A stretch of 64,000 nt of DNA from a bacterium (GCA_030648955.1 JAUSHB010000006.1:11866-75865); one strand, 5' to 3'. Positions 4,159 to 21,873 are shown, counted from the first letter of the stretch. Translations and numbers: made by a program. Notes: generated from the letters alone by a model not told the origin.

Positions 4159-4255
4159 AGAACGTACGTGGCATATTAACAGCACATTTATATTTGAAAT
4201 TATACACGCCTGAAGATATTTTGACTAATACTCACAAGACTATCTGTGCTCATTA

Positions 4256-4954: not shown

Positions 4955-5010
4955 AATTCTTTTATCTTTTTTATAAACATGTTGAGTAGTTTATGGAATC
5001 GTTATCCTGC

Positions 5011-5478
5011 CTAATACACCGTCCCCTGTGCAGTCACCGTAATGGTAGCTGTGTCGCCTAGAGATGAAAGCCCGAGTGTCATTGCAGTGGCTGTTCCACT
5101 TATTTTTGAAAAAATAATTTCTTTACTCAAACCCTCTCCCGGATTGGTAAATATTACCCCGCGCGGTAGTGTTGTGGTTGAATGAACGGCCGTGAGCACA
5201 TCGATATAATTTGTAGGTGTTGAAAAGATTTCGTAGTAATCGTCTGCGCTATTCACTGCACGCATACCCCATTTCATGTTATTCTCACCCGCCATAGACT
5301 TTGCTCGTACATTTTTAATGTCAGACATCAATGTTTTACTAGTAGCTTGAGATTCAATAGTCGTTACCGTATTATGAAAATATCCCGCTCCTGCTGCACT
5401 CAATCCCGCAAGAATAGCAATGACAATCAAAATTTCAAGCAAACTTATGCCTCGAGAAAGATTATAGAAATTAGACAT
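5011..5478 (-). CDS. Type IV minor pilin / pseudopilin (GspH-like size)
   Basis: MSNFYNLSRG|ISLLEILIVIAILAGL. Prepilin leader followed by a conserved E5-containing hydrophobic helix. Confidence 0.7.
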   Translation of the reverse strand: MSNFYNLSRGISLLEILIVIAILAGLSAAGAGYFHNTVTTIESQATSKTLMSDIKNVRAKSMAGENNMKWGMRAVNSADDYYEIFSTPTNYIDVLTAVHSTTTLPRGVIFTNPGEGLSKEIIFSKISGTATAMTLGLSSLGDTATITVTAQGTVY

Positions 5479-6713: not shown

Positions 6714-8438
6714 TTACTCCCTCACCACCCTTAATATTTCCTCAATAGTGGTCATTCCCCGTTCAACTTTCCCGAGACCATCCTCAAACATTGTTACCAT
6801 TCCTTCACGAATCGCCACCTTGCGAATTTCCCCTACTGTAGCAACTTTCATAAGAAGCTCCCGAATCGCATTACTCACCTGGAACAACTCGAAGATACCA
6901 ATTTGTCCCGTAAACCCCGTATTGCCGCATACCTTGCACCCCTTACCACGATAGAGCGTAGTTGGTGTATTTTTTATATTACCTTCACCAAGTGTTTTTA
7001 TCTCCCCCACAATAAGATGATTTATTTCTGCGGGGATGGGGTATGACTCAACACATGATGTACATATCCTACGAACTAAGCGTTGAGCTATCACGAGATT
7101 CACGGTTGAAGAAAGTAGGAATGCGGGAGCACCCATATCAAGAAGACGGGGCAGGGCCGAGGGAGCATCATTCGTATGAAGAGATGAAAGCACTAAATGT
7201 CCCGTAAGGGCGGCATGGACTGCGATTTCTACTGTTTCATTGTCACGTATCTCACCAATCATTATGATGTCGGGATTTTGACGCAAAAGTGCACGCAGAC
7301 CATTAGCAAAGGTGATGCCTGATTTTGAATTTACCTGCGTTTGATTAATGCCGGATACTTGATATTCTATCGGATCCTCGATTGTCGTTATATTTACTTT
7401 TGTCGTATTCAAAATATTGAGCATTGCATAGAGCGTAGTTGTCTTTCCGTGTCCCGTAGGACCCGTAACCAATATCATTCCGTGGGGTTTTTTGATCTCC
7501 TCATCAATCCGAGTTTGCATTTTTTCAGGAACACCCAGGTCATCGAGAGTAAGTGGACGAGCGGAATTTTTCAATAGTCGCATTTCAACTTTTTCACCAT
7601 GGAATATCGGCATGATGTTGGTACGAATATCAATAGCTGTACCGTCCTCAATTTCAAAACGAAATCGTCCATCTTGGGGTGTTCTATGTTCATCGATTTG
7701 TAGGTTGCCAAGAATTTTCACCCGCGCAACAAGAATTGGCGCAATCGTTTTGGGAAGTGCTAATATTTCCTGCATGATTCCATCGATACGAAATCGTACC
7801 AGGAGAGCTTTTTCGAGCGGCTCAAAATGGATATCGGAAGCATTGAGTACCGCTGCATGCTCCACGATATTATCAAGGATCGCCACAATGGGAACCGCGG
7901 AAGCTGTTTTTGCCAAATCTGTATCACTGCTCACGGCAATTAAAAGTGACTTTTCTATGTTTTCAGATATTGTTTGATTAAATCCTACGCCAATTTTCTT
8001 TTTATATTGCCTAAGACCATATTTAAAGCTCGTAATCGTCATGAGATGTGTTTCTATCCAAACACCAAGTTTTGCGCGCAAGAATTCAATCGTATCAAGA
8101 TCGAGCGGATCAAGCATCGCGATTTTGAGAATTTTTTTAGTCACATCATGCTCAAAAGCAATAACGCTCTTTGATTTAGCGTAATTTTCTGAAACAAGCT
8201 CAAGTGTCTTTTGTGGAATATTGACCTTTTTAAGGTTTATGAGTGGAACTTCAAAATATGGAGAAAGAACTTCCGATAAGTATTCCTCTGAAATATATCC
8301 TTTCCCCATGAGAATCTCGGGAATTTCGCGTCCTGTTTTAAATGACTCATCACGAGCCAATTCAAAATCCTTATCAGTCACCACGCCGGATTCATTTAGT
8401 ATTTTTTTTAGGTTGTCGGTGGTAATGTGCATGCCCAC
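6714..8438 (-). CDS. pilB: Type IV pilus assembly ATPase PilB (GspE family)
   Basis: N-terminal GSPII_E N-domain. Walker A LVTGPTGHGKTTTL. Asp/His boxes. C-terminal tetracysteine CTSCV...CKVCGNTG. Confidence 0.9.
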   Translation of the reverse strand: MGMHITTDNLKKILNESGVVTDKDFELARDESFKTGREIPEILMGKGYISEEYLSEVLSPYFEVPLINLKKVNIPQKTLELVSENYAKSKSVIAFEHDVTKKILKIAMLDPLDLDTIEFLRAKLGVWIETHLMTITSFKYGLRQYKKKIGVGFNQTISENIEKSLLIAVSSDTDLAKTASAVPIVAILDNIVEHAAVLNASDIHFEPLEKALLVRFRIDGIMQEILALPKTIAPILVARVKILGNLQIDEHRTPQDGRFRFEIEDGTAIDIRTNIMPIFHGEKVEMRLLKNSARPLTLDDLGVPEKMQTRIDEEIKKPHGMILVTGPTGHGKTTTLYAMLNILNTTKVNITTIEDPIEYQVSGINQTQVNSKSGITFANGLRALLRQNPDIIMIGEIRDNETVEIAVHAALTGHLVLSSLHTNDAPSALPRLLDMGAPAFLLSSTVNLVIAQRLVRRICTSCVESYPIPAEINHLIVGEIKTLGEGNIKNTPTTLYRGKGCKVCGNTGFTGQIGIFELFQVSNAIRELLMKVATVGEIRKVAIREGMVTMFEDGLGKVERGMTTIEEILRVVRE

Positions 8439-8683
8439 ATATTATATCATGTGGTTTTATGCTCGCATATCCATAAAAATAATCATACGCATAAAGCCCT
8501 TCGAGCGTTTCTTTGTTATTTTGTTAGAAAATGATCATTTAATTTTTTCCCTAGGCTCGTTAAGACTTCGTAGCCCCTTCCAATTGTCTTAACATCTTCA
8601 CGACCGTGAAAGTATTCCGTGCGGGGTGATAATTTAATGTATGTGGTTTGATCTGTAGTGTATATTGTTTACCGTAAAAAGAC

Positions 8684-9364
8684 TTAGACCTTGAGGGCGG
8701 AAATATGAAAAAACGCCGTGGGATCACCAAATATTGACAGTACAAATATAGTCATGACCGAAAGTAGAAAAGAAATTCCAAGAGTGGTTCGAGATTCTTT
8801 GAGCACTTTCAGCCGATACATACTCATTATAACCGTATAGAAAAGTGCGCCGGGAATAAAGACAAGTACCCCTGGCCAGCCGGACAAAAGAGCACAGAGA
8901 AGTCCCAGTTCCATCTCCCCTTCTGCAAAGAAATGACCGCGATAGTTACGTAATAATCTAAGAAATGCATAGAACGCGAATGACACGAGAAGAAGGATTC
9001 CCACCCTTAACCAAAAACGACCGAGAACATAAAACATAAAATACCCGCCAGAATGGTTAAAAAACGGTCGAGTAAATTCAATCGCACTGGGGAAGGGTAC
9101 CGCCGTGCTCACGGGAGCAGTTACCAAAAATTTTGTCAATTCGGTTCCATTTTGCCAAACAGCATGCTGACCAAAAGTAAGCAAAAGAGAATACCCTATC
9201 ATAAATACTATCGTAAGAAATGAGAGTATCCAAAGACGCCGACGTAAAACACCCTCTCTTCCCTCTTTGTTCCTTAGAAATACTAGAGTCGTAAAAACTA
9301 AGAGTGCCGGAATTACGATGCGAGGTGCCCACAAGGCTATACTACTGATAACGTGATAATCCAT
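8684..9364 (-). CDS. Polytopic membrane protein, possibly a divergent prepilin-peptidase (A24/PilD)-like protein. The catalytic Asp pair is not evident
   Basis: About 7 predicted TM helices. Motif GHFFAEGEMELGLLCALLSGWPG resembles the PilD GGGDVKLLAxLG box but has Glu in place of Asp. Only two Asp in the whole protein. Position between pilB and the major pilin. Confidence 0.3.
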   Translation of the reverse strand: MDYHVISSIALWAPRIVIPALLVFTTLVFLRNKEGREGVLRRRLWILSFLTIVFMIGYSLLLTFGQHAVWQNGTELTKFLVTAPVSTAVPFPSAIEFTRPFFNHSGGYFMFYVLGRFWLRVGILLLVSFAFYAFLRLLRNYRGHFFAEGEMELGLLCALLSGWPGVLVFIPGALFYTVIMSMYRLKVLKESRTTLGISFLLSVMTIFVLSIFGDPTAFFHISALKV

Positions 9365-9458
9365 ATTATTTTATTATACACCAAAGCCCGCCTTGAAGGC
9401 GGGCTTTGGAAAAACTAAATCTTCTAAACTTCAAGGAACGTTTTATTGGACTATTGGA

Positions 9459-10127
9459 CTAGAAATCTACACCCGCGCCCAAAATTCTCAAGTTTGTTCC
9501 TACTTCGTAATAGTCGTTATTATTACCACCATCTTTTGTTCTTCTGTTATCAGTGCTTGTGTATTCAGTGCTTTCAAGTTGTGCGTTAATCTCAAAGTTG
9601 AGAGGATTCGCGGCGCATGCGTAGCGATATACGAGGTCAGTGCTTGCAACAGTACCAAGTGCTGCAATTGTATTAGTTGGATCTTGTGGAACATTTGAAA
9701 TTGGAGACCCACTAGTAAGAGAATCGAAACTTACTGGAATCCATCCCGTACCATCAGTAAGGGTTGGTGTTGCTGACTGACCTGAAACCACAACAATACT
9801 GCCATCAAGTGTTGTATCTGTAATCAGAGTACCAGAACCAAGCGAGTAAAAAATCTTGTCTCCAGCGATATATGCAGCAGTAGGGGATGCCTTACATGCC
9901 GTATTGTTTGCAACATCACCAAGATAAGGGGTCGATGTGCTGGTAATATAAAGACCGAGTGCTGTCTTGAGCGTGCTCAAGTCTGAAATTCGCTGTGCAT
10001 CTCGAGACTTCTTAAGCGTCTCTGCTGGGTTTATGACCAAAATAAGAGCGACTGACAAAATCGCAATAATTGCGATTACAATCAAAAGTTCAAGGAGTGT
10101 GAAACCATCTTTCTTTTCCCGTGACAT
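9459..10127 (-). CDS. Type IV pilin (major pilin candidate)
   Basis: Probable start at the second Met, giving a short leader MSREKKDG|FTLLELLIVIAIIAILSVALI. This is a canonical class III signal plus alpha1 helix. Ser/Thr-rich C-terminal domain. First gene downstream of a long promoter-containing intergenic region. Confidence 0.75.
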   Translation of the reverse strand: MSREKKDGFTLLELLIVIAIIAILSVALILVINPAETLKKSRDAQRISDLSTLKTALGLYITSTSTPYLGDVANNTACKASPTAAYIAGDKIFYSLGSGTLITDTTLDGSIVVVSGQSATPTLTDGTGWIPVSFDSLTSGSPISNVPQDPTNTIAALGTVASTDLVYRYACAANPLNFEINAQLESTEYTSTDNRRTKDGGNNNDYYEVGTNLRILGAGVDF

Positions 10128-10211
10128 AACATTTCCTGTGTACATAGTATAAAAAATTATTTTCTATTAAATTACCGAACTTATTAACTCATGTGCTCGA
10201 ATGCTCTTGCA

Positions 10212-10219
10212 ATTATACA
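10212..10219 (-). promoter_or_regulatory. Candidate extended -10 element (TGTATAAT on the minus strand) for the major pilin gene
   Basis: Reverse complement of 10212-10219 is TGTATAAT. It lies about 90 bp upstream of the pilin start. The -35 element is not clear. Confidence 0.25.
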
Positions 10220-10258
10220 ACATACTACTCAACAATAGATAACTGTGGGTGTGGATAA

Positions 10259-10275
10259 CCCCCCCCTTTTTTTTT
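10259..10275. repeat. Homopolymeric C8-T9 tract in the pilin upstream region
   Basis: cccccccc followed by ttttttttt at 10259-10275. Lies between the receiver gene stop and the putative pilin promoter. Confidence 0.8.
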
Positions 10276-10342
10276 ACGGACCTCACTCTCATTAAAAATC
10301 CAAAAAAGACGACTGTGCGTAGAATGTTGATGTGAGGAGTGC

Positions 10343-10765
10343 TTATTGTCGTTCCGTATTCCCATTACTCCCCTTCCCGCCATTTTTTTCTAAATACTGC
10401 TTAACCTTACTGATTACTTCTCCGATTGAATAATCCACCTTAATAAGGTAGTCGACCGCGCCAAGTCCCATTGCACGATCACGGTCAGTTTGTTGACCTA
10501 GATTTGAAAGTGCGATTATGGGAATATTTGCTAGTTCTGGTTTCTTTTTTACCTCTTCTATCACCCAAAAACCATCACGTCCCGGTATCATAAGATCAAG
10601 GAGGATCAAGTCCGGTATTTCAATGGCGATCCCCGCAAAACCCGATGGACCATCTCGAAACACCTTAACATCTACATTTTCTTTCGCGAGTTTGATTTCA
10701 TAAACCTTTGAAATATGTTCGTCGTCTTCTATAATCACTATTTTTTTTCTTTTTTCTGTATCCAT
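10343..10765 (-). CDS. Stand-alone response-regulator receiver (CheY-like) protein
   Basis: KKIVIIEDDE... acidic pocket. Phospho-acceptor Asp in LILLDLMIPGRDG. Ser in IIALSNLG. Lys in DYLIK. No output domain. Confidence 0.85.
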   Translation of the reverse strand: MDTEKRKKIVIIEDDEHISKVYEIKLAKENVDVKVFRDGPSGFAGIAIEIPDLILLDLMIPGRDGFWVIEEVKKKPELANIPIIALSNLGQQTDRDRAMGLGAVDYLIKVDYSIGEVISKVKQYLEKNGGKGSNGNTERQ

Positions 10766-10826
10766 TGAATTTCTGTTATACGGAACGAATCTTTGACGAG
10801 TCTCAAATTACAAGCGTACGATTTCT

Positions 10827-11243
10827 TTAGATGTACGAAACCACCTTTGAAACCAATGTATCTAAATCATAGGCACTTTTAACCAGGTAGTCAACCGCCC
10901 CCAACTCGAGGGCTCTTTTCTTTGAATCGTCTCCTCCTGATACTGATACTACGATAACTTTTTTATCTTTATATAAAGGGTTTTTCCTCATGAGTTCAAG
11001 GAAATTGAGACCGTTCATTCCAGGCAATAAAATATCGAGCCAAATGAGCACAACGCTATTATTTTCTTCGAGAACTTTAAATGCGTCCTCCGCATTAAAG
11101 GTAGTTGCAATAGTATAGCCTCTTTTGTTCAACTTAAGAACAATGGCTTTATTAAGAGCTACGTCGTCTTCGACAACAAGAATTGTTTTCACTTCGGTAG
11201 ATTTTTCAATCATGTGTTTAGTATACCACAAACTATAAATCAT
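10827..11243 (-). CDS. Stand-alone response-regulator receiver (CheY-like) protein; start may be the internal Met near 11213
   Basis: ILVVEDD, VLIWLDILLPGMNG (Asp), VIVVSVSGG, DYLVK. No output domain. Confidence 0.85.
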   Translation of the reverse strand: MIYSLWYTKHMIEKSTEVKTILVVEDDVALNKAIVLKLNKRGYTIATTFNAEDAFKVLEENNSVVLIWLDILLPGMNGLNFLELMRKNPLYKDKKVIVVSVSGGDDSKKRALELGAVDYLVKSAYDLDTLVSKVVSYI

Positions 11244-11354
11244 TAACCATGCGTCTATGTAAAATAACTATTTTATTACAATTAAAGCGATCTCGTATTA
11301 CTCTAGGACACTCCCGCGGAATGTCTTTTTGTGCCTGCACTGTCTTTTATAGAA

Positions 11355-13829
11355 TCAGCTCATCTTCTGCGTAAGGGAAGGATGTTCGGGAACAGTAACA
11401 TTGAACGTTGTTCCCTTCCCTATTTCAGAATCAAACCACACCTTGCCTCCCCATGATTCGATTAATCCTTTTACTAACGAAAGTCCGAGCCCTGATCCAT
11501 CAGGAACCTTATTCAAGGCATTCTGAGCTCTGTAGAATTTTGAAAAGATTCTTGATTTTTCTTCATCCGGAATACCGATTCCATTATCTTGAACGCGACA
11601 GAGATATTCTCCTGCTCTTTTTTCAATACTTACGTTTATAATTCCGCCATTATTGGTGTATTGAATCGAGTTTGCAATCAGGTTCAAAAACACCTGTCGT
11701 AGCAATAATGGATCAAGGTCGATATCGGGGATATCTCCTTGTGGAAGTGAGACATTCATCGTAAGGGCTTTGGGGGAAAGTTGGGGTTTGAATTCTTCTA
11801 TAACTTCATTCATAAGTTTCACAATGTTCACCTTCTCCGTACTTTGCTTTAATGTTCCATTTTCTATTCTGGAAATTGATAACAAAAGATCGATTGTATT
11901 GTAAAGACGGAGTGTACCGCTATTGACCTCGGATGCAAAGTCTCTTTGCATTTCATTAAGAGGTCCCGCATCTTCTGAAAGAAGCATTTCGGAATACCAC
12001 CTAATTGAAGTAAGTGGCGTGCGTAATTGGTGCGATGCAATGGATATAAAACTTGATTTTGATTCATCGAGTGCTTTTTCTTTACTAATATCGCGAAACA
12101 CAATAACTGCGCCCATATCCTTATCTTTTACGAGCGGAGTAGCAAAAACTGCAACAGGAAATTCCTTTCCGGAATTTGTGCGAAATGAGTAGCGGTCTTC
12201 TAATCCAATCTCTATGGGCTGTTTCGTTGCAAGCACTCGCGCCATAAGACGATCGTCGTAGGGAATGTCCTTTCCATCTTTACGCGCCAAGATTACATCG
12301 TCTACCTTTTTCCCTATAATATCTTTCAAGGAAATATCAAGTATTTGTTCCGTCATCGGATTTGCAAGCGTTATAACATGTTCTTGGTTAACCAAAAAAA
12401 GTCCCTCGCCAACGGACGTAATAATCGACTGTAGCTCATTGCGTTGCAACTTAAATTTTTCTTTTAGCTCCCAAGCATCTTCGAGCACATTCACGGTTGC
12501 GCGTTTTGAATCTTCAAGGAATTTATTTTGTCGTTCGGTAGTTTCCAAGCTCGCCGCAAGGTCATGAGTTTTTTCAATCACTTTCTTTTCAAGATCAAAC
12601 TGAGCTTCATAGATGCGTACAAGCATGCGATTAAAAGCCCCCGCAAGGACTCCAATTTCATCATGCGTGCTTATGGTAAACAGGGGTAATATATTTGATT
12701 TATTTTTAATATCTATATGAGTCACAAAATCCGTTAGTCGCTTGAGGGGAGACACGACCAAAAAGGAAATGAGGAAATAAATAATCACACCGATGCCGAG
12801 AAGAAACGCAAGCCAGATCGCTATTAGATTCGTGATTTTATCCAAAAAGGCATATACCTCTCGCTTCTCTACCTCAACAAGAATCCATAGATTTAACGTT
12901 GGTGACCATGTATACCCACCAAGCACATTGACCGCATTGTGGTTGATATACTCTACGAGACCACTGTCGCCCACGAGTGGACTCCCTCTTCCCCAGAGTT
13001 CAAACGTAGCGCCAACCTCCTGAATGTTCTCATGATCCTCTGTATCGTGTACATGTTCTTCGGCAAGCACTTGCCCATTTTGAGAAATGAGGTAGAGCTC
13101 TGTGTGTGTTTGAAAAAAACCGGTAGATAAAAATGGCTTTGTAAATTCCCTCATGGGCACATCCCCCGCGAGAAATAATTTGGTTGAACCATTTTCTGTG
13201 AACAGGCGTGTAACAACAGTGACAACTTGATCATCATCACCCCCTTCGTTATATATCAAAAATGTTTCATCGTTAGAATGTATTGAACGTGCATGAGATC
13301 TGGTGTTTTTGTACAGATCCATGTACGTTTGCGATCCCTGTGATATGTCTGTGTTCATTGACACTATCAACTTTTCCCCAATTGCATCAAAAATGTAAAT
13401 ATTCGTAAATACCCCCGCCGTGTGAGCGTCCTTACCCACCATAGAGACCAAATATTCTCTTAGCGCATTTTGAACACCGAGCTTTGTTTTTGGTGGTGGC
13501 GTGTCTTCTTGACTAGGTATGCTATGCAACATTTCTACTATTTCTTTAGACCCTGTGAAGTTTGACTTGAAAACAATAAGGTGTCCTCCCAAATCCGCGT
13601 AGTAATCACTGATTGATTTATCTGCGATATCAACGGATATTTGCATCTTCTCGTGTATTTCATCTTTGCTAAATGAACTCACGCTCAAAAACATATAAAT
13701 ACCCGCGGCAAATAAAGGCAAAAATCCTGCGACTGCCACCAACGTTGCAAGTTTGTATGTAATACCGAAACGAACCCGCATTTCGGTATTTATTTTTCGC
13801 TGTTTCTTTTTATTGTTTTTAAAGATCAT
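11355..13829 (-). CDS. Sensor histidine kinase: two TM helices with a large extracytoplasmic (Cache-like) domain, HAMP, PAS, HisKA and HATPase_c
   Basis: H-box SIASHQLRTPLTSIRW (His codon near 12030). N/G boxes NLIANSIQYT...DNGIGIP...GSGLGLSLV. About 280-aa loop between TM1 and TM2. Confidence 0.9.
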   Translation of the reverse strand: MIFKNNKKKQRKINTEMRVRFGITYKLATLVAVAGFLPLFAAGIYMFLSVSSFSKDEIHEKMQISVDIADKSISDYYADLGGHLIVFKSNFTGSKEIVEMLHSIPSQEDTPPPKTKLGVQNALREYLVSMVGKDAHTAGVFTNIYIFDAIGEKLIVSMNTDISQGSQTYMDLYKNTRSHARSIHSNDETFLIYNEGGDDDQVVTVVTRLFTENGSTKLFLAGDVPMREFTKPFLSTGFFQTHTELYLISQNGQVLAEEHVHDTEDHENIQEVGATFELWGRGSPLVGDSGLVEYINHNAVNVLGGYTWSPTLNLWILVEVEKREVYAFLDKITNLIAIWLAFLLGIGVIIYFLISFLVVSPLKRLTDFVTHIDIKNKSNILPLFTISTHDEIGVLAGAFNRMLVRIYEAQFDLEKKVIEKTHDLAASLETTERQNKFLEDSKRATVNVLEDAWELKEKFKLQRNELQSIITSVGEGLFLVNQEHVITLANPMTEQILDISLKDIIGKKVDDVILARKDGKDIPYDDRLMARVLATKQPIEIGLEDRYSFRTNSGKEFPVAVFATPLVKDKDMGAVIVFRDISKEKALDESKSSFISIASHQLRTPLTSIRWYSEMLLSEDAGPLNEMQRDFASEVNSGTLRLYNTIDLLLSISRIENGTLKQSTEKVNIVKLMNEVIEEFKPQLSPKALTMNVSLPQGDIPDIDLDPLLLRQVFLNLIANSIQYTNNGGIINVSIEKRAGEYLCRVQDNGIGIPDEEKSRIFSKFYRAQNALNKVPDGSGLGLSLVKGLIESWGGKVWFDSEIGKGTTFNVTVPEHPSLTQKMS

Positions 13830-13865
13830 TGTATGTGCTGTTTATAGGGCACTCGCTTTTTCTCG

Positions 13866-15545
13866 TTATGGTGAATTGAACTTCTTCTTAAGTTCTTCTA
13901 ATTCCTCCTTGATTTCAACCATCCGAAGTTCGCGACCAATCATCAATCGATTGGCTTCTTCAAGTTGAATCGTCTTTGATTTGAGCACTTCTTCATCTAT
14001 TTTATGTTTTGTAATATCGCGACAGTTACAAACAATGCCGTTGACGACAGGATTATTAAGGAGGTTTTTGCCCAGTGCTTCAATGGTGCGCCAAGTACCA
14101 TCCTTGTGGTGAAAACGAAATTCAACGGTGTGCGTTTCCTCTGGCTCTCCCACCACCTTTTCAAATGTCTTTTTTATCCCAGGGAGATCATCTTCGTGCA
14201 TATGCTCAAAAATCTTTTTTCCCTTGAGCTCATCCGGATTATACCCCAAGATTGCAGAAAAAGAGGGACTCGCATACGATACCGTACCATCTTTCCCGAT
14301 TACCGTGACCATATCAACGGAATTTTCACTGAGCGTTTGATAATATTTTTTTTCTATCTCGAGTTTTTCTTCAGTAATCTTATTTTCCGTTATGATGAAC
14401 TGTATGCTCACATATCCCGTAATAATCCCTTTCGTGCTGATTACGGGAACAATAATCGCGTCAACCCAATACAACGAATCATCCTTAGCTTTATTTTTAA
14501 TTTGTCCGTGCCAAACACGACCTTTCAAAAGATAGTTATGCCACATGTCATCAAAAAAAGCTTGCGGATGGAATTCTGAGCGTAACACGCGGTGATTATT
14601 TCCAATCAATTCCTCTCGAGAATATTTAGAGTTTTGAATGAACGTATCGCTTACATAAAAAATATTACCGCGTTCATCTGTTTGAGAAACAATGGCGATA
14701 GAATTCATTGCATCGAGAATCGTTTTAAAATTCTTGGGAAGTACATCCGGAGACGTGTTCTTGAGAACAAATGAGTGCACTGATGCTTCAACGATTGTTT
14801 CATGAAGAGAGGATGTGGTACTATCTTCACTGCGATAGCCAGAGAATTCTTCAACATGAATGTCGTCATGTGTAATCCCCATTTCCATAAGTGATGCCAA
14901 AGAAAACCGTACCATCCCTTCCGGTCCCGCTACATACCAAAGGGCATTTTTTTCGTTTTCTACAATCTTTTTCAACTCGTAGAGCGTAAGGTCTCCCTCA
15001 ATATACTGCACTGAAATATTTGGATTTCCTTGTGAAAACTCATCGAGATCTTTGCGATACGCCCTTGTTTCTTCGTCCTTGCTTACATAAAGTAGCGTAA
15101 TCCTATGAGGAAGTTTATTTTCATAAGAATACCGCAAGATACTCAAAAAGGGAGTAATACCGATGCCCCCGGCTATACACACAATGGGACGAGAACTGTC
15201 CTCTGGAATAAAGAAGGAGCCCAATGGATCACTTACGTGAACCACCGAACCAGTTGCCATTTCAAGAATGCTTTTTTTAAATCCGCTTCCGGAAATACGA
15301 AATGCTATCGTGATAACATCATGATTATTTGGTGATGATAAAATCGAAAAATCCCTTCCATTTCCCCTGGGATCCTGGAATATGAGGCTGGGAAGCATTA
15401 TGTGGACATATTGTCCCGGCGTAAAGGGTAATTCTTGTTCGACAATTTCTGACGACCCACCAACAGACTTACGACCAAAAGTAATCTCTATAGTTCCCCC
15501 AGCGACAACTCTTCGGTCTATGATTGGTAAATGATACTTAGACAT
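13866..15545 (-). CDS. Kinase-less sensor protein: N-terminal FNR-like FAD/NAD(P)-binding oxidoreductase domain, two PAS domains and a C-terminal conserved helix
   Basis: RDFSILSSP (RxYS FAD motif) and GGIGITPF (NAD(P) motif). Two PAS blocks (IAIVSQTDERGNIFYVSDTF...; DMVTVIGKDGTVSYASPSF...). C-terminal MIGRELRMVEIKEELEELKKKFNSP. Stop lies 36 bp before the HK start. Confidence 0.8.
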   Translation of the reverse strand: MSKYHLPIIDRRVVAGGTIEITFGRKSVGGSSEIVEQELPFTPGQYVHIMLPSLIFQDPRGNGRDFSILSSPNNHDVITIAFRISGSGFKKSILEMATGSVVHVSDPLGSFFIPEDSSRPIVCIAGGIGITPFLSILRYSYENKLPHRITLLYVSKDEETRAYRKDLDEFSQGNPNISVQYIEGDLTLYELKKIVENEKNALWYVAGPEGMVRFSLASLMEMGITHDDIHVEEFSGYRSEDSTTSSLHETIVEASVHSFVLKNTSPDVLPKNFKTILDAMNSIAIVSQTDERGNIFYVSDTFIQNSKYSREELIGNNHRVLRSEFHPQAFFDDMWHNYLLKGRVWHGQIKNKAKDDSLYWVDAIIVPVISTKGIITGYVSIQFIITENKITEEKLEIEKKYYQTLSENSVDMVTVIGKDGTVSYASPSFSAILGYNPDELKGKKIFEHMHEDDLPGIKKTFEKVVGEPEETHTVEFRFHHKDGTWRTIEALGKNLLNNPVVNGIVCNCRDITKHKIDEEVLKSKTIQLEEANRLMIGRELRMVEIKEELEELKKKFNSP

Positions 15546-15552
15546 ACATTCG

Positions 15553-17136
15553 CTATGATTTAGGGTTAAGTTTTTCGGTAAGCTGTAAAATTTCTTTTTT
15601 TAGCTCTATCATTCTCAATTCGCGCTCAATGGTAATCTTGTTTATTTTAGTAAGTTCATTAATAGTGTGCGTCATTTTTTCTTCCGCTTCTTTCTTTTCA
15701 ATTTTCTGAGCAATAATGCCTGCAACAGATTGAATAAACGAAACGTCCTGGGAAGAAAATGTTCTTCGTTTTATAGAGTACACACTAAGGACTCCATATG
15801 GCTTGCCGGTGTTTTTTGGAATAACGACACTTACGCCACTTGTTATACCATGTTCTGCTAAGTGAGGAGGTGCCTGAAAGCGCTGTTCTACTTTGAAGTC
15901 TGTAACAACAATTGGCTCATCTGAAAGAAATGTATATTCTACTTGCGAGTTTTTTCCCGCTTCGACAATAGTGTTCCCCAACATGCCTTCTCTCCATCCA
16001 GCGCCGATAACAAGACGCAACGCTTTGCCGTCAGGGAGAAGCTCAAGAATACTGACGTAGTCAACCCCTAAGCTTGCCCTAATCTTAGAAACCCCATCTT
16101 GCGTGAACACTTGAACATTCGATTCAGTAATCGCACTTCTGCTGAAGTCTGCCACAAATGCCTGCTGGCGAATACGTAACGAAACAGCTTTGTTTGTGTT
16201 TATAAGTCTTCGATTAATACTGCGCAACGCCAGCAAAACAATAACACCGAGTACGCTAATCAATGTGGCGTAAATTTTAATCTGATTGATTGCTTTAAAT
16301 ACATCACTTCGGTTTTCTTCAAGGATGACCAAAAATTGAGGGCCGGAAACATAGCCTCCCGCAGAGAGAACGCGAACACCTTTTTCATTTTTATACGTGT
16401 ATCTATCGTCAAGCGAAGATGTCGTTTGTTTTGCTTGAAGCGTATCGATCACAATACGCCGCGACATGTAGCCCGGGTTTTTAAGCACCAAGGATGTATC
16501 CGGATCGCTGATCAAAACTCCCTCACTGTCGACAATATATAGTTTTCCCGTTTGTGCAAGTTTAATACTCCCAACATCCTTAAACATTTCATTCACATTA
16601 AATTCAGCAGAAATAACACCGGCAAGAGCTTCATCTGATGTGTAGAAAGGAACACTGGCAATAATATGTGGCTCAAGGTTTGCTGAGATTGTTACAGAAG
16701 ACCATGCTGGTCTTCTGGTTGTTATCGCTTCCATAAAATTATGGCGCGTACTAATATTCTCATACGTGAGCAGATTCGTGGGTTTAAACTTATCAAACTT
16801 AATAATTTCTTTGCCGGAAGGATCGGTAAGAGAAACTGCCTTAACATTATCCCCCTTGAGTACGTTTTGTAGTACGAGACTATTTTCCTTAGCCTCAAGA
16901 TCCGGGATAATGTATTGAGACGATACCTGAAGTCCTAGAATATTATTTTCGAGAAATAACTTTATTCTTGATAGTGCGATTTCAATCGTACGTTCCTCAA
17001 CAATGTTTATGTTGCTCCGAAGAAGCGTAAGCGTAGGGAAAAGCCAAATAAGGTTACCGAGCACCACGAGAGAACCCAGGAATATGTATACGTGTGAAGA
17101 ATAATTGCTTTTTGTGGTGCCCATAGGCAGAATCAT
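15553..17136 (-). CDS. Kinase-less sensor protein: TM, extracytoplasmic double-Cache-like domain, TM, GAF domain and a C-terminal conserved helix
   Basis: Two TM segments flank an about 250-aa extracytoplasmic region. Cytoplasmic GAF-like block (...LGVDYVSILELLPDGKALRLVIGAGW...). C-terminal TIERELRMIELKKEILQLTEKLNPKS. Translationally coupled to its neighbours. Confidence 0.7.
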   Translation of the reverse strand: MILPMGTTKSNYSSHVYIFLGSLVVLGNLIWLFPTLTLLRSNINIVEERTIEIALSRIKLFLENNILGLQVSSQYIIPDLEAKENSLVLQNVLKGDNVKAVSLTDPSGKEIIKFDKFKPTNLLTYENISTRHNFMEAITTRRPAWSSVTISANLEPHIIASVPFYTSDEALAGVISAEFNVNEMFKDVGSIKLAQTGKLYIVDSEGVLISDPDTSLVLKNPGYMSRRIVIDTLQAKQTTSSLDDRYTYKNEKGVRVLSAGGYVSGPQFLVILEENRSDVFKAINQIKIYATLISVLGVIVLLALRSINRRLINTNKAVSLRIRQQAFVADFSRSAITESNVQVFTQDGVSKIRASLGVDYVSILELLPDGKALRLVIGAGWREGMLGNTIVEAGKNSQVEYTFLSDEPIVVTDFKVEQRFQAPPHLAEHGITSGVSVVIPKNTGKPYGVLSVYSIKRRTFSSQDVSFIQSVAGIIAQKIEKKEAEEKMTHTINELTKINKITIERELRMIELKKEILQLTEKLNPKS

Positions 17137-17137
17137 G

Positions 17138-18145
17138 TTAGTTTACAATTTGGGATGCAATACTTTTTATTTCTTCCGAAAACGTGACGCCGATTTCTTT
17201 CGCATTCTTAATACTCAACACAAAATCAATTTTACTCGGAGTTTCAAAAGGAAGTGCTCCGGGATCTTCTCCTTGGAGAACTTTCTCGGCGATACGCGCA
17301 AGTGATCTTCCCATGTCGGCGTAATCTGGTCCATATGAAGCAAGGGCTCCGCCATTGAGTGCTGCTTTGTCGGGCATAATGATTGGTAATTTATTCTCCC
17401 GCGCAACCTTGAGAAAGAGGTCCGACTGTGAAAAAAGCGTTCCGTGAGGATAGAACATGAGCGCGTCAAATTTTTTCCAATCCACACCCATAAAAGCGTC
17501 TTCAATTTCTTTTCGTCCCGGATTGGTAAGAGAAAATTCAGTTAGGGTAATGCCTAGTTTTTTACTTAATTCCTTGCCGATAGGTCGAGCTATCGCTGTA
17601 GGACCGCACGTAGTATCATAAAACATTGCAATATTTTTTATAGACGGAATCATTTTTTTGATAAGCTCAATCCGTTTGGGGGTAAGCTCAATACTTTGGT
17701 GCGAAATACCAGCAATATTGATTCCAGAACTTTGAATTGATTTAAAATACCCGTGAGCGATAGGATCTCCTAACGCAGTCAATATGGGGATAGTTTTTGT
17801 TTTATCCGCAAGATCAAATGTTGGTCTGGTAGAAATGGTGGCAATGAGATCTGGTTTTTCAGCAATAGCTTCATCAATATACGTTTTGAGTTTTTCCTTA
17901 CTTCCTTCAGTATTCTTATAATCAATGACGATACTTAATCCCTGCTCATGATGTATTTTCCTAATCTCTTTCATGAAACTATCCAAAAAAATCGTGAATG
18001 TTTCTCCGCCAGGATTTAATACCACAATGTGGTGAGTATGGACTGTTTCTTCCCCCCCTTTTATGCCCCCATGCTCGTAAACATACCATACTGCAATACT
18101 AAGAATAGAAAAAACGAGTACGATCAAAAATAATTTTTTAGGCAT
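17138..18145 (-). CDS. Membrane-anchored periplasmic-binding-protein-like protein; resembles the ABC_sub_bind family of substrate-binding proteins often found with two-component sensors
   Basis: N-terminal anchor helix. Two-lobed PBP-like sequence (…LTALGDPIAHGYF…IAGISHQSIELTPKRIELIKKMIPSIKNIAMFYD…). First gene of the sensor operon. No permease or ATPase partner nearby. Confidence 0.6.
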   Translation of the reverse strand: MPKKLFLIVLVFSILSIAVWYVYEHGGIKGGEETVHTHHIVVLNPGGETFTIFLDSFMKEIRKIHHEQGLSIVIDYKNTEGSKEKLKTYIDEAIAEKPDLIATISTRPTFDLADKTKTIPILTALGDPIAHGYFKSIQSSGINIAGISHQSIELTPKRIELIKKMIPSIKNIAMFYDTTCGPTAIARPIGKELSKKLGITLTEFSLTNPGRKEIEDAFMGVDWKKFDALMFYPHGTLFSQSDLFLKVARENKLPIIMPDKAALNGGALASYGPDYADMGRSLARIAEKVLQGEDPGALPFETPSKIDFVLSIKNAKEIGVTFSEEIKSIASQIVN

Positions 18146-18435: not shown

Positions 18436-18444
18436 TGGTATAAT
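18436..18444 (+). promoter_or_regulatory. Candidate extended -10 (TGGTATAAT) upstream of pilM-pilN
   Basis: tatagTGGTATAATc lies about 65 bp upstream of the pilM start. The -35 element is weak or unclear. Confidence 0.25.
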
Positions 18445-18509: not shown

Positions 18510-19946
18510 ATGAACTTTATTAAAATTTTCACACGAGAGGAGTCAATCGCGGGTCTTGAAATAAGCGAGACTCATCTGAAGCTCGCGTTTCTAACCCTCG
18601 AAACTTCTCACAAAAAAGAACAGCCAACCCTACGTATCAAAGCACTCACCGAAGAACCTCTACCGGGGGGCACTATACAAGATGGCGAAGTTCTCGATAG
18701 AGAAGCATTGACAGCTTCCCTTATTAAACTCCTCAATAAATCACCGAGTGTTAAATATTTTATTGTTTCCATACCGGGGAATAAACTTTACCAAAAGATT
18801 TTTCCATTTCCCCAGACTATTTTAGAAGAGCGCCTTGTTGACGCGATGAAATTGGTGACGACATTCCAATTACCCTACGCGGAAGATACGGCCTATGTTG
18901 ATTGGGAAAAATCATCAAATAATCTGCACAATGAAGTTTTTCTTGCCACTGCCCCCAAGACTGTTGTCGAAGGATTTTTATCAGCACTTGATCGTGCGGG
19001 GGTCAAAACAGTTGCGCTCGAATCACACACAATGAGCTTGGCTCGAGTAGTAGAACATGAAGACCAACCTATTCTGGTATGTAACACCGGAAAAACAGAC
19101 ATCACATTCTCGGTGGTAAAAAATGGTATTCCACGATTTGAAAGAATCACCCCAATTTCTCTCTTGGGTGAAAAATCCATGAGTATGGAGATGGAAAAAA
19201 TTAAAAAATTTTATGAGGTTGAATGGAGGGAGGTAATTACGCGCGTAATTGAACTTCCCCATGTTTCGCTTTTTCACTCACTTGCGCTTGAGTTGAAACG
19301 TTTTGGCGGGGAGAATAATACAACAGCATGGGTAATTGCTCTTGGGGCAGCCATGCGCGGACTTCTCCCGCGAGCAGAAGATACCATCGTGAGCATGCTT
19401 CCCGTAGGTACCGAAAAAGCATATGAGTACCAGAAGGCGGTAGCATTTTCAAAATTTATCACCAACACCACAATCGGTCTTGCGCTATTCTGGACTGCAA
19501 TATTTTTCAGTTCGTGGATTCTTTTGTCGGCAATTCAACAAGATTCCAATAAAGAACTCTCGTCACTCTCATCGCTTCCCTCTTCAGCGGAAAACTTGGC
19601 TCTTGAAGATCGGGCGCACGAATTTAACGCACTCGCAAGGCGAGCAAATTCTATTATTGCCACATTTCCCGCATGGAGTATGGTTGTTGAGGATGTTAAA
19701 GCCCATAGCGTGAAGGGTATCACTATTACCAATGTTTCATTCGCCACCCCTGATTCACTTTTTTCATTAACCGGCATAGCCGCAACACGCGCCGATATTA
19801 ATATATTTAAAAAATCGATGGAAACTTCAAAGATTTTTACCGAAATGACCATTCCCCTTACAAACCTTGAACAACGAGCAAATATTTCTTTTTCAGCAAC
19901 ATTCCGCATGATCGATCCGAATGTCTTGTATCAAGGTAACAAGTAA
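18510..19946 (+). CDS. pilM: PilM-PilN fusion protein: actin-like ATPase-fold PilM domain, TM segment and PilN-like periplasmic tail
   Basis: N-terminus ...ESIAGLEISETHLKLAFLT matches the PilM start. Internal TM TTIGLALFWTAIFFSSWILLSAI at about aa 315. About 140 further residues follow. Confidence 0.8.
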   Translation: MNFIKIFTREESIAGLEISETHLKLAFLTLETSHKKEQPTLRIKALTEEPLPGGTIQDGEVLDREALTASLIKLLNKSPSVKYFIVSIPGNKLYQKIFPFPQTILEERLVDAMKLVTTFQLPYAEDTAYVDWEKSSNNLHNEVFLATAPKTVVEGFLSALDRAGVKTVALESHTMSLARVVEHEDQPILVCNTGKTDITFSVVKNGIPRFERITPISLLGEKSMSMEMEKIKKFYEVEWREVITRVIELPHVSLFHSLALELKRFGGENNTTAWVIALGAAMRGLLPRAEDTIVSMLPVGTEKAYEYQKAVAFSKFITNTTIGLALFWTAIFFSSWILLSAIQQDSNKELSSLSSLPSSAENLALEDRAHEFNALARRANSIIATFPAWSMVVEDVKAHSVKGITITNVSFATPDSLFSLTGIAATRADINIFKKSMETSKIFTEMTIPLTNLEQRANISFSATFRMIDPNVLYQGNK

Positions 19947-19959
19947 AAAAAACTTATTT

Positions 19960-20523
19960 ATGCTTACTCGACGACAACTTTTAATAACCCTGGGTAAACA
20001 TTTTTTTGTGATGATCACAGCCATCATCGTAGCATCTATTGCCATATCCATACTCAGTAGAAATATTACGTCAATCGGAGATTCCCTCATTGAAAAAAAA
20101 CGACTATCGATCATACTTTCCAAACGAGGCGAATATCTTTCGGGACTCAAGCGAGATTTTAATGTTGTGGGCGAAGCAGACAAAAGGATTATAGAAGCAT
20201 CCCCGCCTTCTGATAATATTCTCCCTTTTGTCGCCATTCTCGAAAACATAGCGGATCAGACATCAGTACAACAGTCGTTTAAATTTGGAATTCCATCGCT
20301 CACGGGTGAAAAACAAAACGGTATGGAAATCGCAACCATAGACTACTCAATTCGCGTAAACGGAAACGTACATACCCTGATTAATTATTTACAGCGGTTT
20401 GAGTCGCTCCCCTACTTTTCAACAATCTCAAGTATAACCATATCCGGAGGTGGAACACGGGGCTGGGAAGAAACTGCTCAGGCAACAATTGAAGCAAAAA
20501 TCTACACACTGTCGAATCAATAA
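19960..20523 (+). CDS. PilO-like type IV pilus inner-membrane assembly protein
   Basis: Start MLTRRQLLITLGKHFFVMITAIIVASIAISIL (single TM). About 150-aa periplasmic domain. Position after pilM/N. Confidence 0.55.
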   Translation: MLTRRQLLITLGKHFFVMITAIIVASIAISILSRNITSIGDSLIEKKRLSIILSKRGEYLSGLKRDFNVVGEADKRIIEASPPSDNILPFVAILENIADQTSVQQSFKFGIPSLTGEKQNGMEIATIDYSIRVNGNVHTLINYLQRFESLPYFSTISSITISGGGTRGWEETAQATIEAKIYTLSNQ

Positions 20524-20551
20524 ATACAATCTCTTACTTTATTAAAATACC

Positions 20552-21181
20552 ATGAAAGAGCGATATAAAATTAAATTAAAGGAGATCATAAAAGGAATCA
20601 CGTGGAAAAAAGTCTTCTACCCGACGCTTGTTAGTATTTTTGCACTTATTATTATTGTATTGTTCATATTTTCCGTACGCTTTATCTCTAAAAGTATCAA
20701 TCGAGTATTTATAAATGAGGAAAGTATTGAGGGTCAATTGCCACGTCTTGAACTTGATAGTTATTTACCTGTCGCAAAAAAATTAGGCATCCCGGTAAAC
20801 ACATTTGAACCATCACAGGAGCTCGGTGATGAATTTGTGGCAGAATCACAAATTCATACGCCCTCGAACTCATCCGCTACCAGTTCGCAGTATACTATCG
20901 ACAACATACAATCGCTTAAAATTGCCATATACAATAGCACTGATGTTCCTGGTCTAGCTCAAAATCTTAAGAATATTCTCAAAGAAAAAGGTTTTGAGGT
21001 GACCGAGACTGGCAATACGGAAAAGACGGGCGACCATACGCTGATTAAAATAAAAGAAAGTAAAAAGGACTCATTGGCGGAAGTAAAAACGATTGTTGGC
21101 GAACACTACAATATCGGTGAATCCCCTTTTCTTTCTGAAGATAGCGAATTTGACGTAATTATCATAATAGGAGATAAATAG
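20552..21181 (+). CDS. Membrane protein with a C-terminal LytR_C-like domain
   Basis: N-terminal TM. C-terminal block LKIAIYNSTDVPGLAQNLKNILKEKGFEV...DVIIIIGDK is typical of the LytR C-terminal domain. Confidence 0.5.
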   Translation: MKERYKIKLKEIIKGITWKKVFYPTLVSIFALIIIVLFIFSVRFISKSINRVFINEESIEGQLPRLELDSYLPVAKKLGIPVNTFEPSQELGDEFVAESQIHTPSNSSATSSQYTIDNIQSLKIAIYNSTDVPGLAQNLKNILKEKGFEVTETGNTEKTGDHTLIKIKESKKDSLAEVKTIVGEHYNIGESPFLSEDSEFDVIIIIGDK

Positions 21182-21243
21182 ATTTGTGGGATACTCCATC
21201 GTGAGCATATCAAAAAAATCACATACTACTGCTATAAAAAAGA

Positions 21244-21873
21244 TTGGGTATGAATAATAAGATTGAAAAATATTTTGGGTCAAAAACAATATTTTTCAAT
21301 AGAGGATTTACTCTCATTGAGCTCCTGGTTGTCATTGCGATTATCGGCATTTTGGCGTCGGTAGTTCTTGCGTCGCTTAATACCGCGAGAGACAAAGCAA
21401 AGACATCAAAAGTTAAGGCTGATCTTAGGTCATTGCGCACCGCTATCGCCCTTCTTGAAGATGACACGGGAAAATGGCCAAATGGATGCCCACCGGCAAC
21501 AGTAGCTAACCCAGAGGTTGCGCTTGATAATGCGCTAGCGGGAATTAAAGTAACGTCAACAGTTGGTTGCACTGAAGATAGCAATAACAGCAATAACCCC
21601 ACATGTGACGCCCCTATTGTGTGCCAGTGGACAGCACAAGATATCACGAATTGGAAAGGACCGTACATGCAAACACCTGTTGACCCATGGGGAAATTCTT
21701 ATATTTTTGATCCTGACTATCACCAATATGCCGATTGTGGGACTGAACCAGCCTCAAATAAATATCCTACCATTCCAGAATTTGTTACCGTTTTTTCTTC
21801 TGGACCAGATGAATTGGGGAATGGGACAACGGGAACATACGGCTGTGATGACATATTCCTCAAAATACAATAA
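21244..21873 (+). CDS. Type IV pilin / GspG-like pseudopilin
   Basis: ...NRG|FTLIELLVVIAIIGILASVVLASLN prepilin signal. GspG-type motif DPWGNSYIF. Cys pairs in the head domain. Confidence 0.8.
   Translation: MGMNNKIEKYFGSKTIFFNRGFTLIELLVVIAIIGILASVVLASLNTARDKAKTSKVKADLRSLRTAIALLEDDTGKWPNGCPPATVANPEVALDNALAGIKVTSTVGCTEDSNNSNNPTCDAPIVCQWTAQDITNWKGPYMQTPVDPWGNSYIFDPDYHQYADCGTEPASNKYPTIPEFVTVFSSGPDELGNGTTGTYGCDDIFLKIQ

Follow-up and report, generated by a model that had tools for sequence, protein, structure and literature searches.

Two-component control of type IV pili has been described in several forms. PilS-PilR is a system dedicated to these pili and encoded near the pilus genes, in which PilS senses pilin through six transmembrane (TM) helices and PilR is an NtrC-type DNA-binding activator (REC, AAA+, HTH). 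In the Pil-Chp pathway, two single-domain receivers, PilG and PilH, act on type IV pili and can have opposing roles (PMC7029496). In Xanthomonas oryzae, the branched ColS-ColR-EmvR system controls the pili through protein contact. There, a canonical kinase phosphorylates the single-domain regulator EmvR, which binds to PilB and reduces its ATPase activity (PMC11973254). Here, we analyzed a stretch of 64,000 nucleotides (nt) of bacterial DNA (GCA_030648955.1, JAUSHB010000006.1:11866-75865; hereafter the window), in which a cluster of six sensory genes sits inside a type IV pilus locus, between a PilM-PilN-like gene and the pilin, pilB and pilC genes (Table 1).

We read this cluster as one conserved multi-input two-component module of a Candidate Phyla Radiation (CPR)-type bacterium, built into its type IV pilus locus, whose sensors dock on the kinase and whose receivers act on the pilus. 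We assign this reading a probability of about 0.6. The docking would involve a tail helix that ends both accessory sensors and a partner helix in the kinase. The window has a GC content of ~41%, and its homologues are annotated as Patescibacteria, Uhrbacteria, Levybacteria and Saccharimonadales, which points to an uncultured, ultra-small bacterium of the CPR type as the source.

The original prediction, made from the DNA alone, had described six co-directional genes with many inputs, one kinase and two bare receivers. All six open reading frames (ORFs) are present on the minus strand, and their Pfam domain content bears out this layout: an anchored periplasmic-binding-protein-like module, two sensors without transmitters (the Cache-GAF and FNR-PAS-PAS proteins, neither with a kinase domain), a histidine kinase, and two receivers, REC1 and REC2, that consist of a REC domain only. 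The gaps between the six genes are 1, 7, 36, 111 and 61 nt; the first had been given as 2 nt, the other four correctly. A further 197 nt separate REC2 from the pilin gene. Searching the 64-kb window by phmmer with the cluster's own kinase-core and receiver sequences returned no other two-component genes. Among the genes assigned over positions 235-21873 there is no CheA, methyl-accepting chemotaxis protein (MCP) or CheW, and an Rfam search of the window gave no RNA match.

The locus resembles each of the described systems in part only. With a HisKA-type membrane kinase instead of CheA and neither MCP nor CheW, it does not belong to the Pil-Chp pathway, and unlike EmvR, PilG and PilH its receivers are PhoB/OmpR-like, encoded inside the pilus locus and found in a CPR-type bacterium. 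It likewise falls outside PilS-PilR, since it has REC-only receivers, a two-TM kinase, no DNA-binding output and other inputs. Overall, the system would work like a branched two-component pathway for type IV pili, with a binding protein and accessory sensors as inputs.

The whole module, in the same order and at the same pilus locus, is found in a 97%-identical contig (L001). It recurs in the same order between pilM and pilin-pilB-pilC in L003-L005 (GCA_040960175.1), where the FNR-PAS protein is only 38% identical. In L002, at 51% identity, pilM is accompanied by a 4TM protein with the tail, an FNR-PAS protein, a kinase, two receivers and two pilin genes. More distant loci show further arrangements: an FNR-PAS-histidine kinase fusion with two receivers, divergent from pilB-pilC (L089); a kinase and then pilD (L092); a kinase, two receivers, pilB and pilC (L114); a kinase, a receiver and two pilin genes (L169); a module adjoining pilM (L173); modules near PilB/PilT-family ATPases (L131, L145); and, in Uhrbacteria, an FNR-PAS-histidine kinase, a receiver, pilB, pilC and pseudopilins (L174). 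We tallied 29 independent modules in which one or more tail sensors are followed by a helix-bearing kinase. A bare receiver lies directly downstream in about 21 of these, and 11 have two receivers. Pilus genes occur in the available stretch of 10 of the 29 modules, and of 7 of the 11 with two receivers. Over all related modules, adjoining pilus genes were seen in at least ten independent lineages. Among 80 control loci gathered by the FNR domain alone, a pilB match was found in one.

Chance or genome compaction could also make neighbors of sensory and pilus genes, CPR genomes being small and gene-dense, and the module would then regulate something else. The L013, L086/87 and L090/91 modules, which show no pilus genes within reach in the available sequence, would fit such an explanation, and a scan for consensus promoters and terminators, with counts not above shuffled controls, was uninformative on co-transcription. 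We nevertheless consider it very unlikely, given that lineages with no more than 38-51% identity have the module between pilM and the pilin gene, that at least seven more lineages show other arrangements beside pilB-pilC, pilD, pilins or pilM, and that the control loci gave a single pilB match. The original prediction had named conservation in close relatives as a check, and the module proved to be both conserved and pilus-linked at 97% and at 38% identity. Recurrence of the order at 38% identity, together with pilus linkage in other lineages, therefore argues that the juxtaposition is not fortuitous, and from this gene linkage we infer a link to pilus function.

Aligned to E. coli CheY, both receivers show a complete acidic pocket (E/D at 12-13), D57, S87, Y106 and K109. 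With these active sites and the complete set of kinase boxes described below, the cluster corresponds to a classical HisKA-type system, for which phosphotransfer is predicted. The two receivers form separate orthogroups, with REC1 preceding REC2 in the window, L002, L003 and L013 alike. In modules further removed, both receivers are REC2-like, and the REC2 type is found throughout related modules. Since neither receiver has an output domain, their action must be by contact. In the 51%-identity relative, the REC1 orthologue (L002, 6560-6940) has the phospho-acceptor Asp replaced by Gly. REC1 could thus be an adaptor or a sink, and in some lineages it may function unphosphorylated.

By sequence, both receivers resemble members of the PhoB/OmpR/YycF class that have lost the DNA-binding domain, and not CheY. 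This class assignment would suit a real module with a transcriptional output, in which the phosphorylated receivers partner with a DNA-binding protein or RNA polymerase at the pilin or other promoters, much as PilS-PilR is a precedent for two-component control of pilin transcription. The pilin gene also has its own TGTATAAT element in the 197-nt spacer just downstream of REC2. However, no DNA-binding domain is encoded in the module or its conserved neighbors, the two spacers searched hold no repeated operator-like sequence, and in L114 and L174 the receivers are followed directly by pilB-pilC, not by a pilin gene. On balance, a transcriptional output seems unlikely to us, and we favor receivers that act on the pilus proteins.

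The element in the spacer is one of 8 copies of TGTATAAT in the window, where 2.6 +/- 1.5 would be expected. Other copies on the minus strand lie upstream of the gene for a 226-aa (amino acid) protein (9373-9380) and of that for a 1,316-aa protein (4199-4206), and TGNTATAAT lies upstream of pilB (8441-8449, minus) and pilM (18436-18444, plus). No such element was found upstream of the binding-protein gene. These sequences probably represent the organism's extended -10 element, of the TG(n)TATAAT type; the pilus genes would thus probably have their own promoters, and the sensory genes are probably transcribed as a separate and weaker operon. The elements do not imply that transcription reads through into the pilin operon, and co-transcription of the sensory genes with the pilin gene is doubtful. 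The suggestion in the original prediction that the unit continues straight into the pilin operon is accordingly not supported, as the spacer with its TGTATAAT element intervenes. Such a layout agrees better with control of the pilus proteins than with plain co-expression. About 45 nt upstream of this TGTATAAT copy, the spacer contains an A9G8 tract (minus-strand sense) whose A-run differs in the 97%-identical L001 (A7T), which could be slipped-strand variation or assembly noise.

The histidine kinase is organized as a TM helix, a periplasmic domain of ~285 aa, a second TM helix, HAMP, the partner helix, PAS, HisKA (Pfam E=3e-14) and HATPase_c (E=5e-28). Its boxes are H (SHQLRTPL) at residue 599, N at 716, G1 (DNGIGI) at 748, F (FSKFYR) at 762 and G2 (GSGLGL) at 778. 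The protein had been described as a Cache-HAMP-PAS kinase, which stands for HAMP, PAS, HisKA and all boxes; the dCache assignment is less secure, as the periplasmic domain has no Pfam match and only its membrane-proximal half aligns with Pfam-positive dCache groups (hhalign 96.7% and 94.2%). A database search with the N-terminal half of the kinase gave five marginal matches and no alignment usable for modelling. The partner helix, between HAMP and PAS, contains the motif K.A..N..ED, in the window as ATVNVLED at residue 444, and no Pfam family covers it. This motif is present in the kinases of all related modules and in 11 of 29 kinase-fused FNR-PAS proteins.

Both accessory sensors of the window share the sequence ...LE..N.LM.GRELRM(I/V)E(L/I)K.E..., in which RELRMIELK (Cache-GAF) and RELRMVEIK (FNR-PAS) lie 14 and 13 aa from the stop codon. 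The general motif is ELEKxNxLMxGRELKMIELKxE, in tails of roughly 35-48 aa. Such a tail ends every transmitter-less sensor of related modules, regardless of sensor domain: Cache-GAF, Cache-only, Cache-PAS, 4TM, CHASE4, CHASE4-PAS, a 288-aa protein of no named family and 13 FNR-PAS homologues. It is never found in kinase-fused FNR-PAS homologues. In the AlphaFold2 (AF2) model, the FNR-PAS tail is a single 45-residue helix extending from PAS2.

The distribution of the tail reaches far beyond these modules. Searched against 1.84 billion representative proteins, the tail profile gave 17,716 matches at E<=1e-3 and 3,862 at E<=1e-10, from sources that include Roizmanbacteria, Melioribacteraceae and an ANME-2 archaeon. 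Bacterial and archaeal tails alike keep the residues R, E, M, E and K unchanged. In the 132 top matches, the distance between the end of the match and the C-terminus has a median of 8 residues and stays within 25 in 118; none of these proteins (0/132) contains an H-box. Among 93 matched proteins of at least 150 aa, Pfam detected PAS in about 77-80, as well as GAF, PocR, REC, dCache, HAMP, CHASE, CHASE4 and SBP_bac_3; the matched families included no kinase, cyclase or MCP output, and the tail itself is not covered by Pfam. The motif strings gave no match in the literature searched. A word-indexed search with the tail profile returned short ORFs only, by the way its candidates are chosen, and was left out of these architecture statistics.

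Because VGRELK resembles VSHELR, an origin of the tail as a degenerate dimerization and histidine phosphotransfer (DHp) helix, with His replaced by Arg, was considered. It was rejected, as hhalign of 116 tails against 29 DHp segments gave a probability of 3%. Several unusual forms of the tail were also seen. Many ORFs of 41-84 aa consist of the tail helix alone (L090 6001-6234; L092 6001-6165; P0121-P0240); some of them adjoin helix-bearing kinases, and others may represent split genes or fragments, which L090 would illustrate: there, a 77-aa tail ORF follows closely on a 230-aa TM-sensor ORF. P0242, P0248, P0249, P0258, P0261 and P0274 combine two tails, or a tail and a kinase-type helix, in one chain, the double tails being placed either one after the other at the C-terminus or on both sides of a TM-CHASE-TM or PocR module. 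These chains look like fusions of separate tail sensors.

To place the tail in its gene context, we gathered 80 metagenomic loci with the tail profile, comprising 104 tail ORFs, 3,485 ORFs overall and 43 kinases. A hidden Markov model of the kinase helix matched 26 of the 3,485 ORFs, including 20 of the 43 kinases and none of the tail proteins. In 22 of the 32 loci with at least 2.5 kb of sequence after the last tail gene, a helix ORF lies downstream on the same strand, in 19 of them within 1.5 kb, and in several pairs the stop and start codons overlap. The reversed order, a helix ORF ahead of the tail gene, occurs in none of the 80 loci, and the helix is absent from all 51 control PAS kinases chosen by PAS similarity alone. 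All three helix-bearing FNR-PAS kinases examined (L013, L089, L090) have a tail gene just upstream, compared with none of three helix-less ones (L012, L174, L175). In P0242, a single chain holds a tail, a short Pro-rich linker, the helix, PAS and a second tail. The window shows the arrangement that defines a module, with transmitter-less tail sensors and a K.A..N..ED kinase directly downstream on the same strand, its gene starting 36 nt past that of the FNR-PAS sensor.

Motif conservation, mutual exclusivity, gene order and co-occurrence together lead us to infer that the tail docks on the kinase helix. REC-(PAS)-tail proteins, in which the tail is the only "output", were also observed (L098, L112, L113, L121, L127, L142, L148), sometimes encoded between two kinase genes; such REC-tail genes between kinases, as in L142, suggest that the tail may also chain kinases into kinase-to-kinase cascades.

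The transmitter-less sensors might instead act apart from the kinase, the tail being a generic dimerizing coiled coil and the sensors having outputs of their own, or the FNR-PAS protein serving mainly as an oxidoreductase. Points that agree with such independence are the orphan FNR-PAS tail protein of L088, which has no kinase nearby, the 10 of 32 loci in which the downstream helix ORF is missing, the stand-alone FNR homologues of ~235 aa that are common enzymes in many phyla, and the plain long helix that is all AF2 gives. A generic coiled coil, however, would not preserve R, E, M, E and K without change in both bacteria and archaea, nor would it be expected to be confined to the C-termini of output-less proteins or to stand in fixed order upstream of kinases with one motif. 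We thus judge independent action improbable and retain docking of the tail sensors on the kinase.

Separate proteins that modulate a histidine kinase by contact are known in Sda, KipI and FixT, and effector-less short PAS/LOV proteins with a J-alpha end offer a terminal helix as the possible sole "output" of a sensor. The system described here differs from these in having a distinct, highly conserved tail common to many sensor types and a matching motif in the kinase linker instead of the DHp domain, to which no homology of the tail was found. Archaeal REC-(PAS/GAF)n and REC-only regulators, covered in a census (PMC5847659), also lack an output domain and are presumed to act by protein-protein interaction. 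Tail-bearing REC-PAS proteins and the ANME-2 example were found here, and the parts of the census considered do not mention a shared C-terminal motif or kinase pairing.

On the input side, the binding protein belongs to ABC_sub_bind (PF04392, Pfam E=3e-45), a TrpX-like family, and has a single N-terminal TM helix (residues 5-23), in agreement with the anchored module originally proposed. Its score against NCBIfam TrpX is 111 bits, far under the cut-off of 390, and its relatives in the PDB are 6hni, 3lkv and 3lft. The Cache-GAF sensor runs TM-dCache_1-TM-GAF and then the tail helix, with TM helices at residues 18-36 and 286-304; its GAF domain is matched at E=5e-14, and its dCache_1 domain (PF02743) at E=2e-11, with 44.2 bits, just short of the gathering cut-off of 45. 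A Cache-tail sensor directly follows the binding-protein gene in all four modules that have one (window, L003, L013, L111).

The family of the binding protein is named for transporters, and its solved members bind L-Trp, L-Tyr or L-Phe, for uptake (PMC10443332), which would fit a plain substrate-binding subunit of an ABC importer encoded elsewhere. Such a role without any sensory function appears highly improbable here. No permease or ATPase gene of a matching system adjoins the binding-protein gene, whose neighbors are pilM on one side and the sensors on the other; the nearby ZnuA/ABC-3 genes belong to a different transporter family, and L003, L013 and L111 have no transporter genes with it either. 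Moreover, only 1 nt separates it from the Cache-GAF gene. Kinase-stimulating binding proteins, exemplified by the LuxP-LuxQ and HptA-HptS pairs, typically have their genes alongside signaling genes and bind to dCache-like domains (PMC8050422). Because of these precedents, the constant presence of a Cache-tail sensor next in order and the lack of transporter genes, the Cache-GAF protein is the likely receptor of the binding protein. The locus thus shares with LuxP-LuxQ, HptA-HptS and TorT-TorS (PMC8050422) an orphan binding-protein gene beside a dCache-like sensor. It differs in that the binding protein is TM-anchored and of the PF04392 family, and in that the likely receptor has no kinase domain of its own and must relay the signal.

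The FNR-PAS-PAS sensor is cytoplasmic and consists of NAD_binding_1 and two PAS domains, with the tail helix last and no transmitter. Its FNR motifs are RDFS at residue 64, GGIGITP at 126 and EEFSG at 232; the first two, as RxYS and GGxGxxP, are invariant over 13 FNR homologues. The FNR part matches flavohemoglobin at E=8e-11 (phmmer against the PDB). The AF2 model, with a predicted local distance difference test score (pLDDT) of 83, comprises an FNR fold, two PAS domains and a helix at 512-556, and in Foldseek its FNR part resembles the SpNOX dehydrogenase domain (TM-score 0.86) and flavohemoglobins. By motifs and modelled fold, the module is assigned to the FNR-like FAD/NAD(P)H oxidoreductase superfamily.

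The best structural matches of the PAS pair are MmoS, an FAD-binding redox sensor (3ewk, 27% identity), and NifL (Foldseek on the AF2 model), and the N-terminal PAS region of NifL matches the pair at E=1.5e-17. In contrast to NifL and MmoS, the sensor has a whole FAD/NAD(P)H reductase module of flavohemoglobin type ahead of its PAS pair, and besides the tail helix it lacks any kinase-like or other output domain. A flavin in the PAS domain is a prediction. In NifL, NADH-dependent reduction of the flavin can be catalyzed by a flavohemoprotein. A fused reductase feeding a flavin-PAS would therefore make a self-contained NAD(P)H/redox sensor, a speculative proposal. A profile scan with the FNR domain mostly retrieved stand-alone FNR enzymes of ~235 aa from unrelated phyla, L012 and L013 being the only useful loci. 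The nearest relatives of the module outside the CPR (L006-L085) are of this stand-alone kind and are widespread among Actinomycetes (Gaiellales), Acidobacteriota and Nitrospira metagenome-assembled genomes.

The surrounding pilus genes, together with the features discussed above, are summarized in Table 1.

Table 1. Features of the sensory cluster and the surrounding type IV pilus locus (positions counted from the first letter of the window).
Feature	Position	Strand	Detail	Basis
Anchored binding protein gene	17138-18145	minus	335 aa	ORF call, Pfam
Cache-GAF sensor gene	15553-17136	minus	527 aa	ORF call, Pfam
Tail helix of Cache-GAF sensor	15556-15699	minus	last 48 aa	RELRMIELK at residue 505/527
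FNR-PAS-PAS sensor gene	13866-15545	minus	559 aa	ORF call, Pfam
Tail helix of FNR-PAS sensor	13869-14012	minus	last 48 aa	RELRMVEIK at residue 538/559
Histidine kinase gene	11355-13829	minus	824 aa	ORF call, Pfam
Kinase partner helix	12420-12539	minus	aa 431-470 (...FLEDSKRATVNVLEDAWELKEK...), between HAMP and PAS	motif comparison
Bare receiver REC1 gene	10827-11243	minus	138 aa	Pfam E=1.5e-20
Bare receiver REC2 gene	10343-10765	minus	140 aa	Pfam
Spacer between REC2 and pilin gene	10146-10342	minus	TGTATAAT element (10212-10219), A9G8 tract (10260-10276)	
Type IV pilin gene	9459-10145	minus	N-terminal methylation motif	Pfam, NCBIfam
Conserved protein gene between pilin gene and pilB	8684-9364	minus	226 aa, 5 TM helices, no recognised family	TM prediction
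pilB	6714-8438	minus	T2SSE with MshEN N-domain	Pfam
pilC	5484-6701	minus	T2SSF	Pfam
Two pseudopilin-like genes	4256-5478	minus	downstream of pilC	weak N_methyl matches
Surface protein gene	235-4185	minus	1,316 aa, N-terminal TM helix, one fn3/purple-acid-phosphatase-N-like domain	
Divergent pilus assembly genes	18510-21873	plus	PilM-TM-PilN-like fusion, 200-aa TM protein, LytR_C protein, pilin	

The divergent assembly set is also found in L001 and L003. Its pilM ORF (478 aa) contains a PilM_2 domain, a TM helix and a weak PilN-like C-terminus and looks like a fusion, and the 200-aa TM protein and the LytR_C-domain protein stand at the place expected for PilO/PilP (18510-21181, plus). Far outside the pilus locus, at 42002-42709, the plus strand carries another prepilin-type gene (N_methyl, 235 aa). 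The 1,316-aa protein at the close of the pilus operon might serve as an adhesin associated with the pilus. Between the pilin gene and pilB, the position of the 226-aa protein is filled in L001 and L003 as well. This protein had been called pilD-like, an identity that we had to abandon: it has no Pfam or NCBIfam match even at E<=5, its BLASTP comparison with a CPR PilD gives E=3.4, and it reads ELGLL where PilD has GLGDV. With neither a profile match nor the catalytic Asp motifs, it was rejected as a prepilin peptidase (Peptidase_A24), and no A24 prepilin peptidase homologue was found in the window.

Taken together, we propose the following sequence of events. On the pattern of LuxP and LuxQ, the binding protein would present a ligand to the Cache-GAF sensor at the latter's dCache domain. 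The FNR domain would report NAD(P)H or redox state and might do so through reduction of a flavin in the NifL/MmoS-like PAS. Each sensor dimer would then pass its state down the C-terminal coiled coil, docking on the partner helix of the kinase, and the docked sensors, jointly with the Cache input that the kinase itself has, would bias its kinase/phosphatase balance. From the kinase, phosphoryl groups would go to REC1 and REC2, which could act by binding pilus proteins, PilB being the precedent, or one of which could be a phosphate sink. The outcome would be a tuning of pilus extension, adhesion or uptake.

Several points weigh against this proposal. The contact between tail and kinase is a prediction from sequence and gene order. 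A natural helix-then-tail chain, P0268, was modelled by AF2 as one continuous helix (residues 5-100, pLDDT 96-98), which neither shows nor excludes packing; a helical hairpin between the two motifs thus found no support. The models of P0268 and of the FNR-PAS tail fit a signaling coiled coil and are silent on contact in trans. The informative loci without a detectable helix ORF and the kinase-less L088 protein count here as well, as do the modules with no pilus genes within reach, and the metagenomic loci are not strictly phylogenetically independent. Furthermore, the receiver targets are putative and drawn from precedent only, the cofactor and ligand of the sensors are predicted only, and the pilus genes have their own -10 elements, so that co-transcription is not needed.

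For CPR/Patescibacteria, which depend on other cells, type IV pili are believed to play a central part in attachment and in the uptake of DNA or nutrients. No regulators of CPR type IV pili were described in the literature searched. A multi-input module embedded in CPR pilus loci appears to be undescribed, as does a family of FNR-PAS redox sensors tied to these loci, and the tail/helix pairing, which seems to wire output-less sensors to kinases well beyond the CPR, likewise appears to be new. The module is a concrete, conserved candidate regulator of CPR pili, with an extracellular ligand, a GAF-bound small molecule and NAD(P)H or redox state as predicted inputs.

Genome censuses report many PAS/GAF/REC-only proteins without a known way to signal. 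The tail on thousands of "output-less" sensors and the matching kinase helix offer a testable answer to this puzzle, and there is a substantial chance that their pairing is a general mechanism. More tentatively, and at somewhat less than even odds, the tail and K.A..N..ED helices would form a general docking system through which free-standing PAS, GAF, Cache, CHASE, PocR, REC and FNR sensors plug into a kinase in trans, and in the CPR one such kinase with two bare receivers would be the dedicated controller of type IV pili, by which these bacteria are believed to reach hosts and to take up DNA. If true, general docking would give bacteria and archaea a way to gain, exchange or chain inputs that needs no gene fusion.

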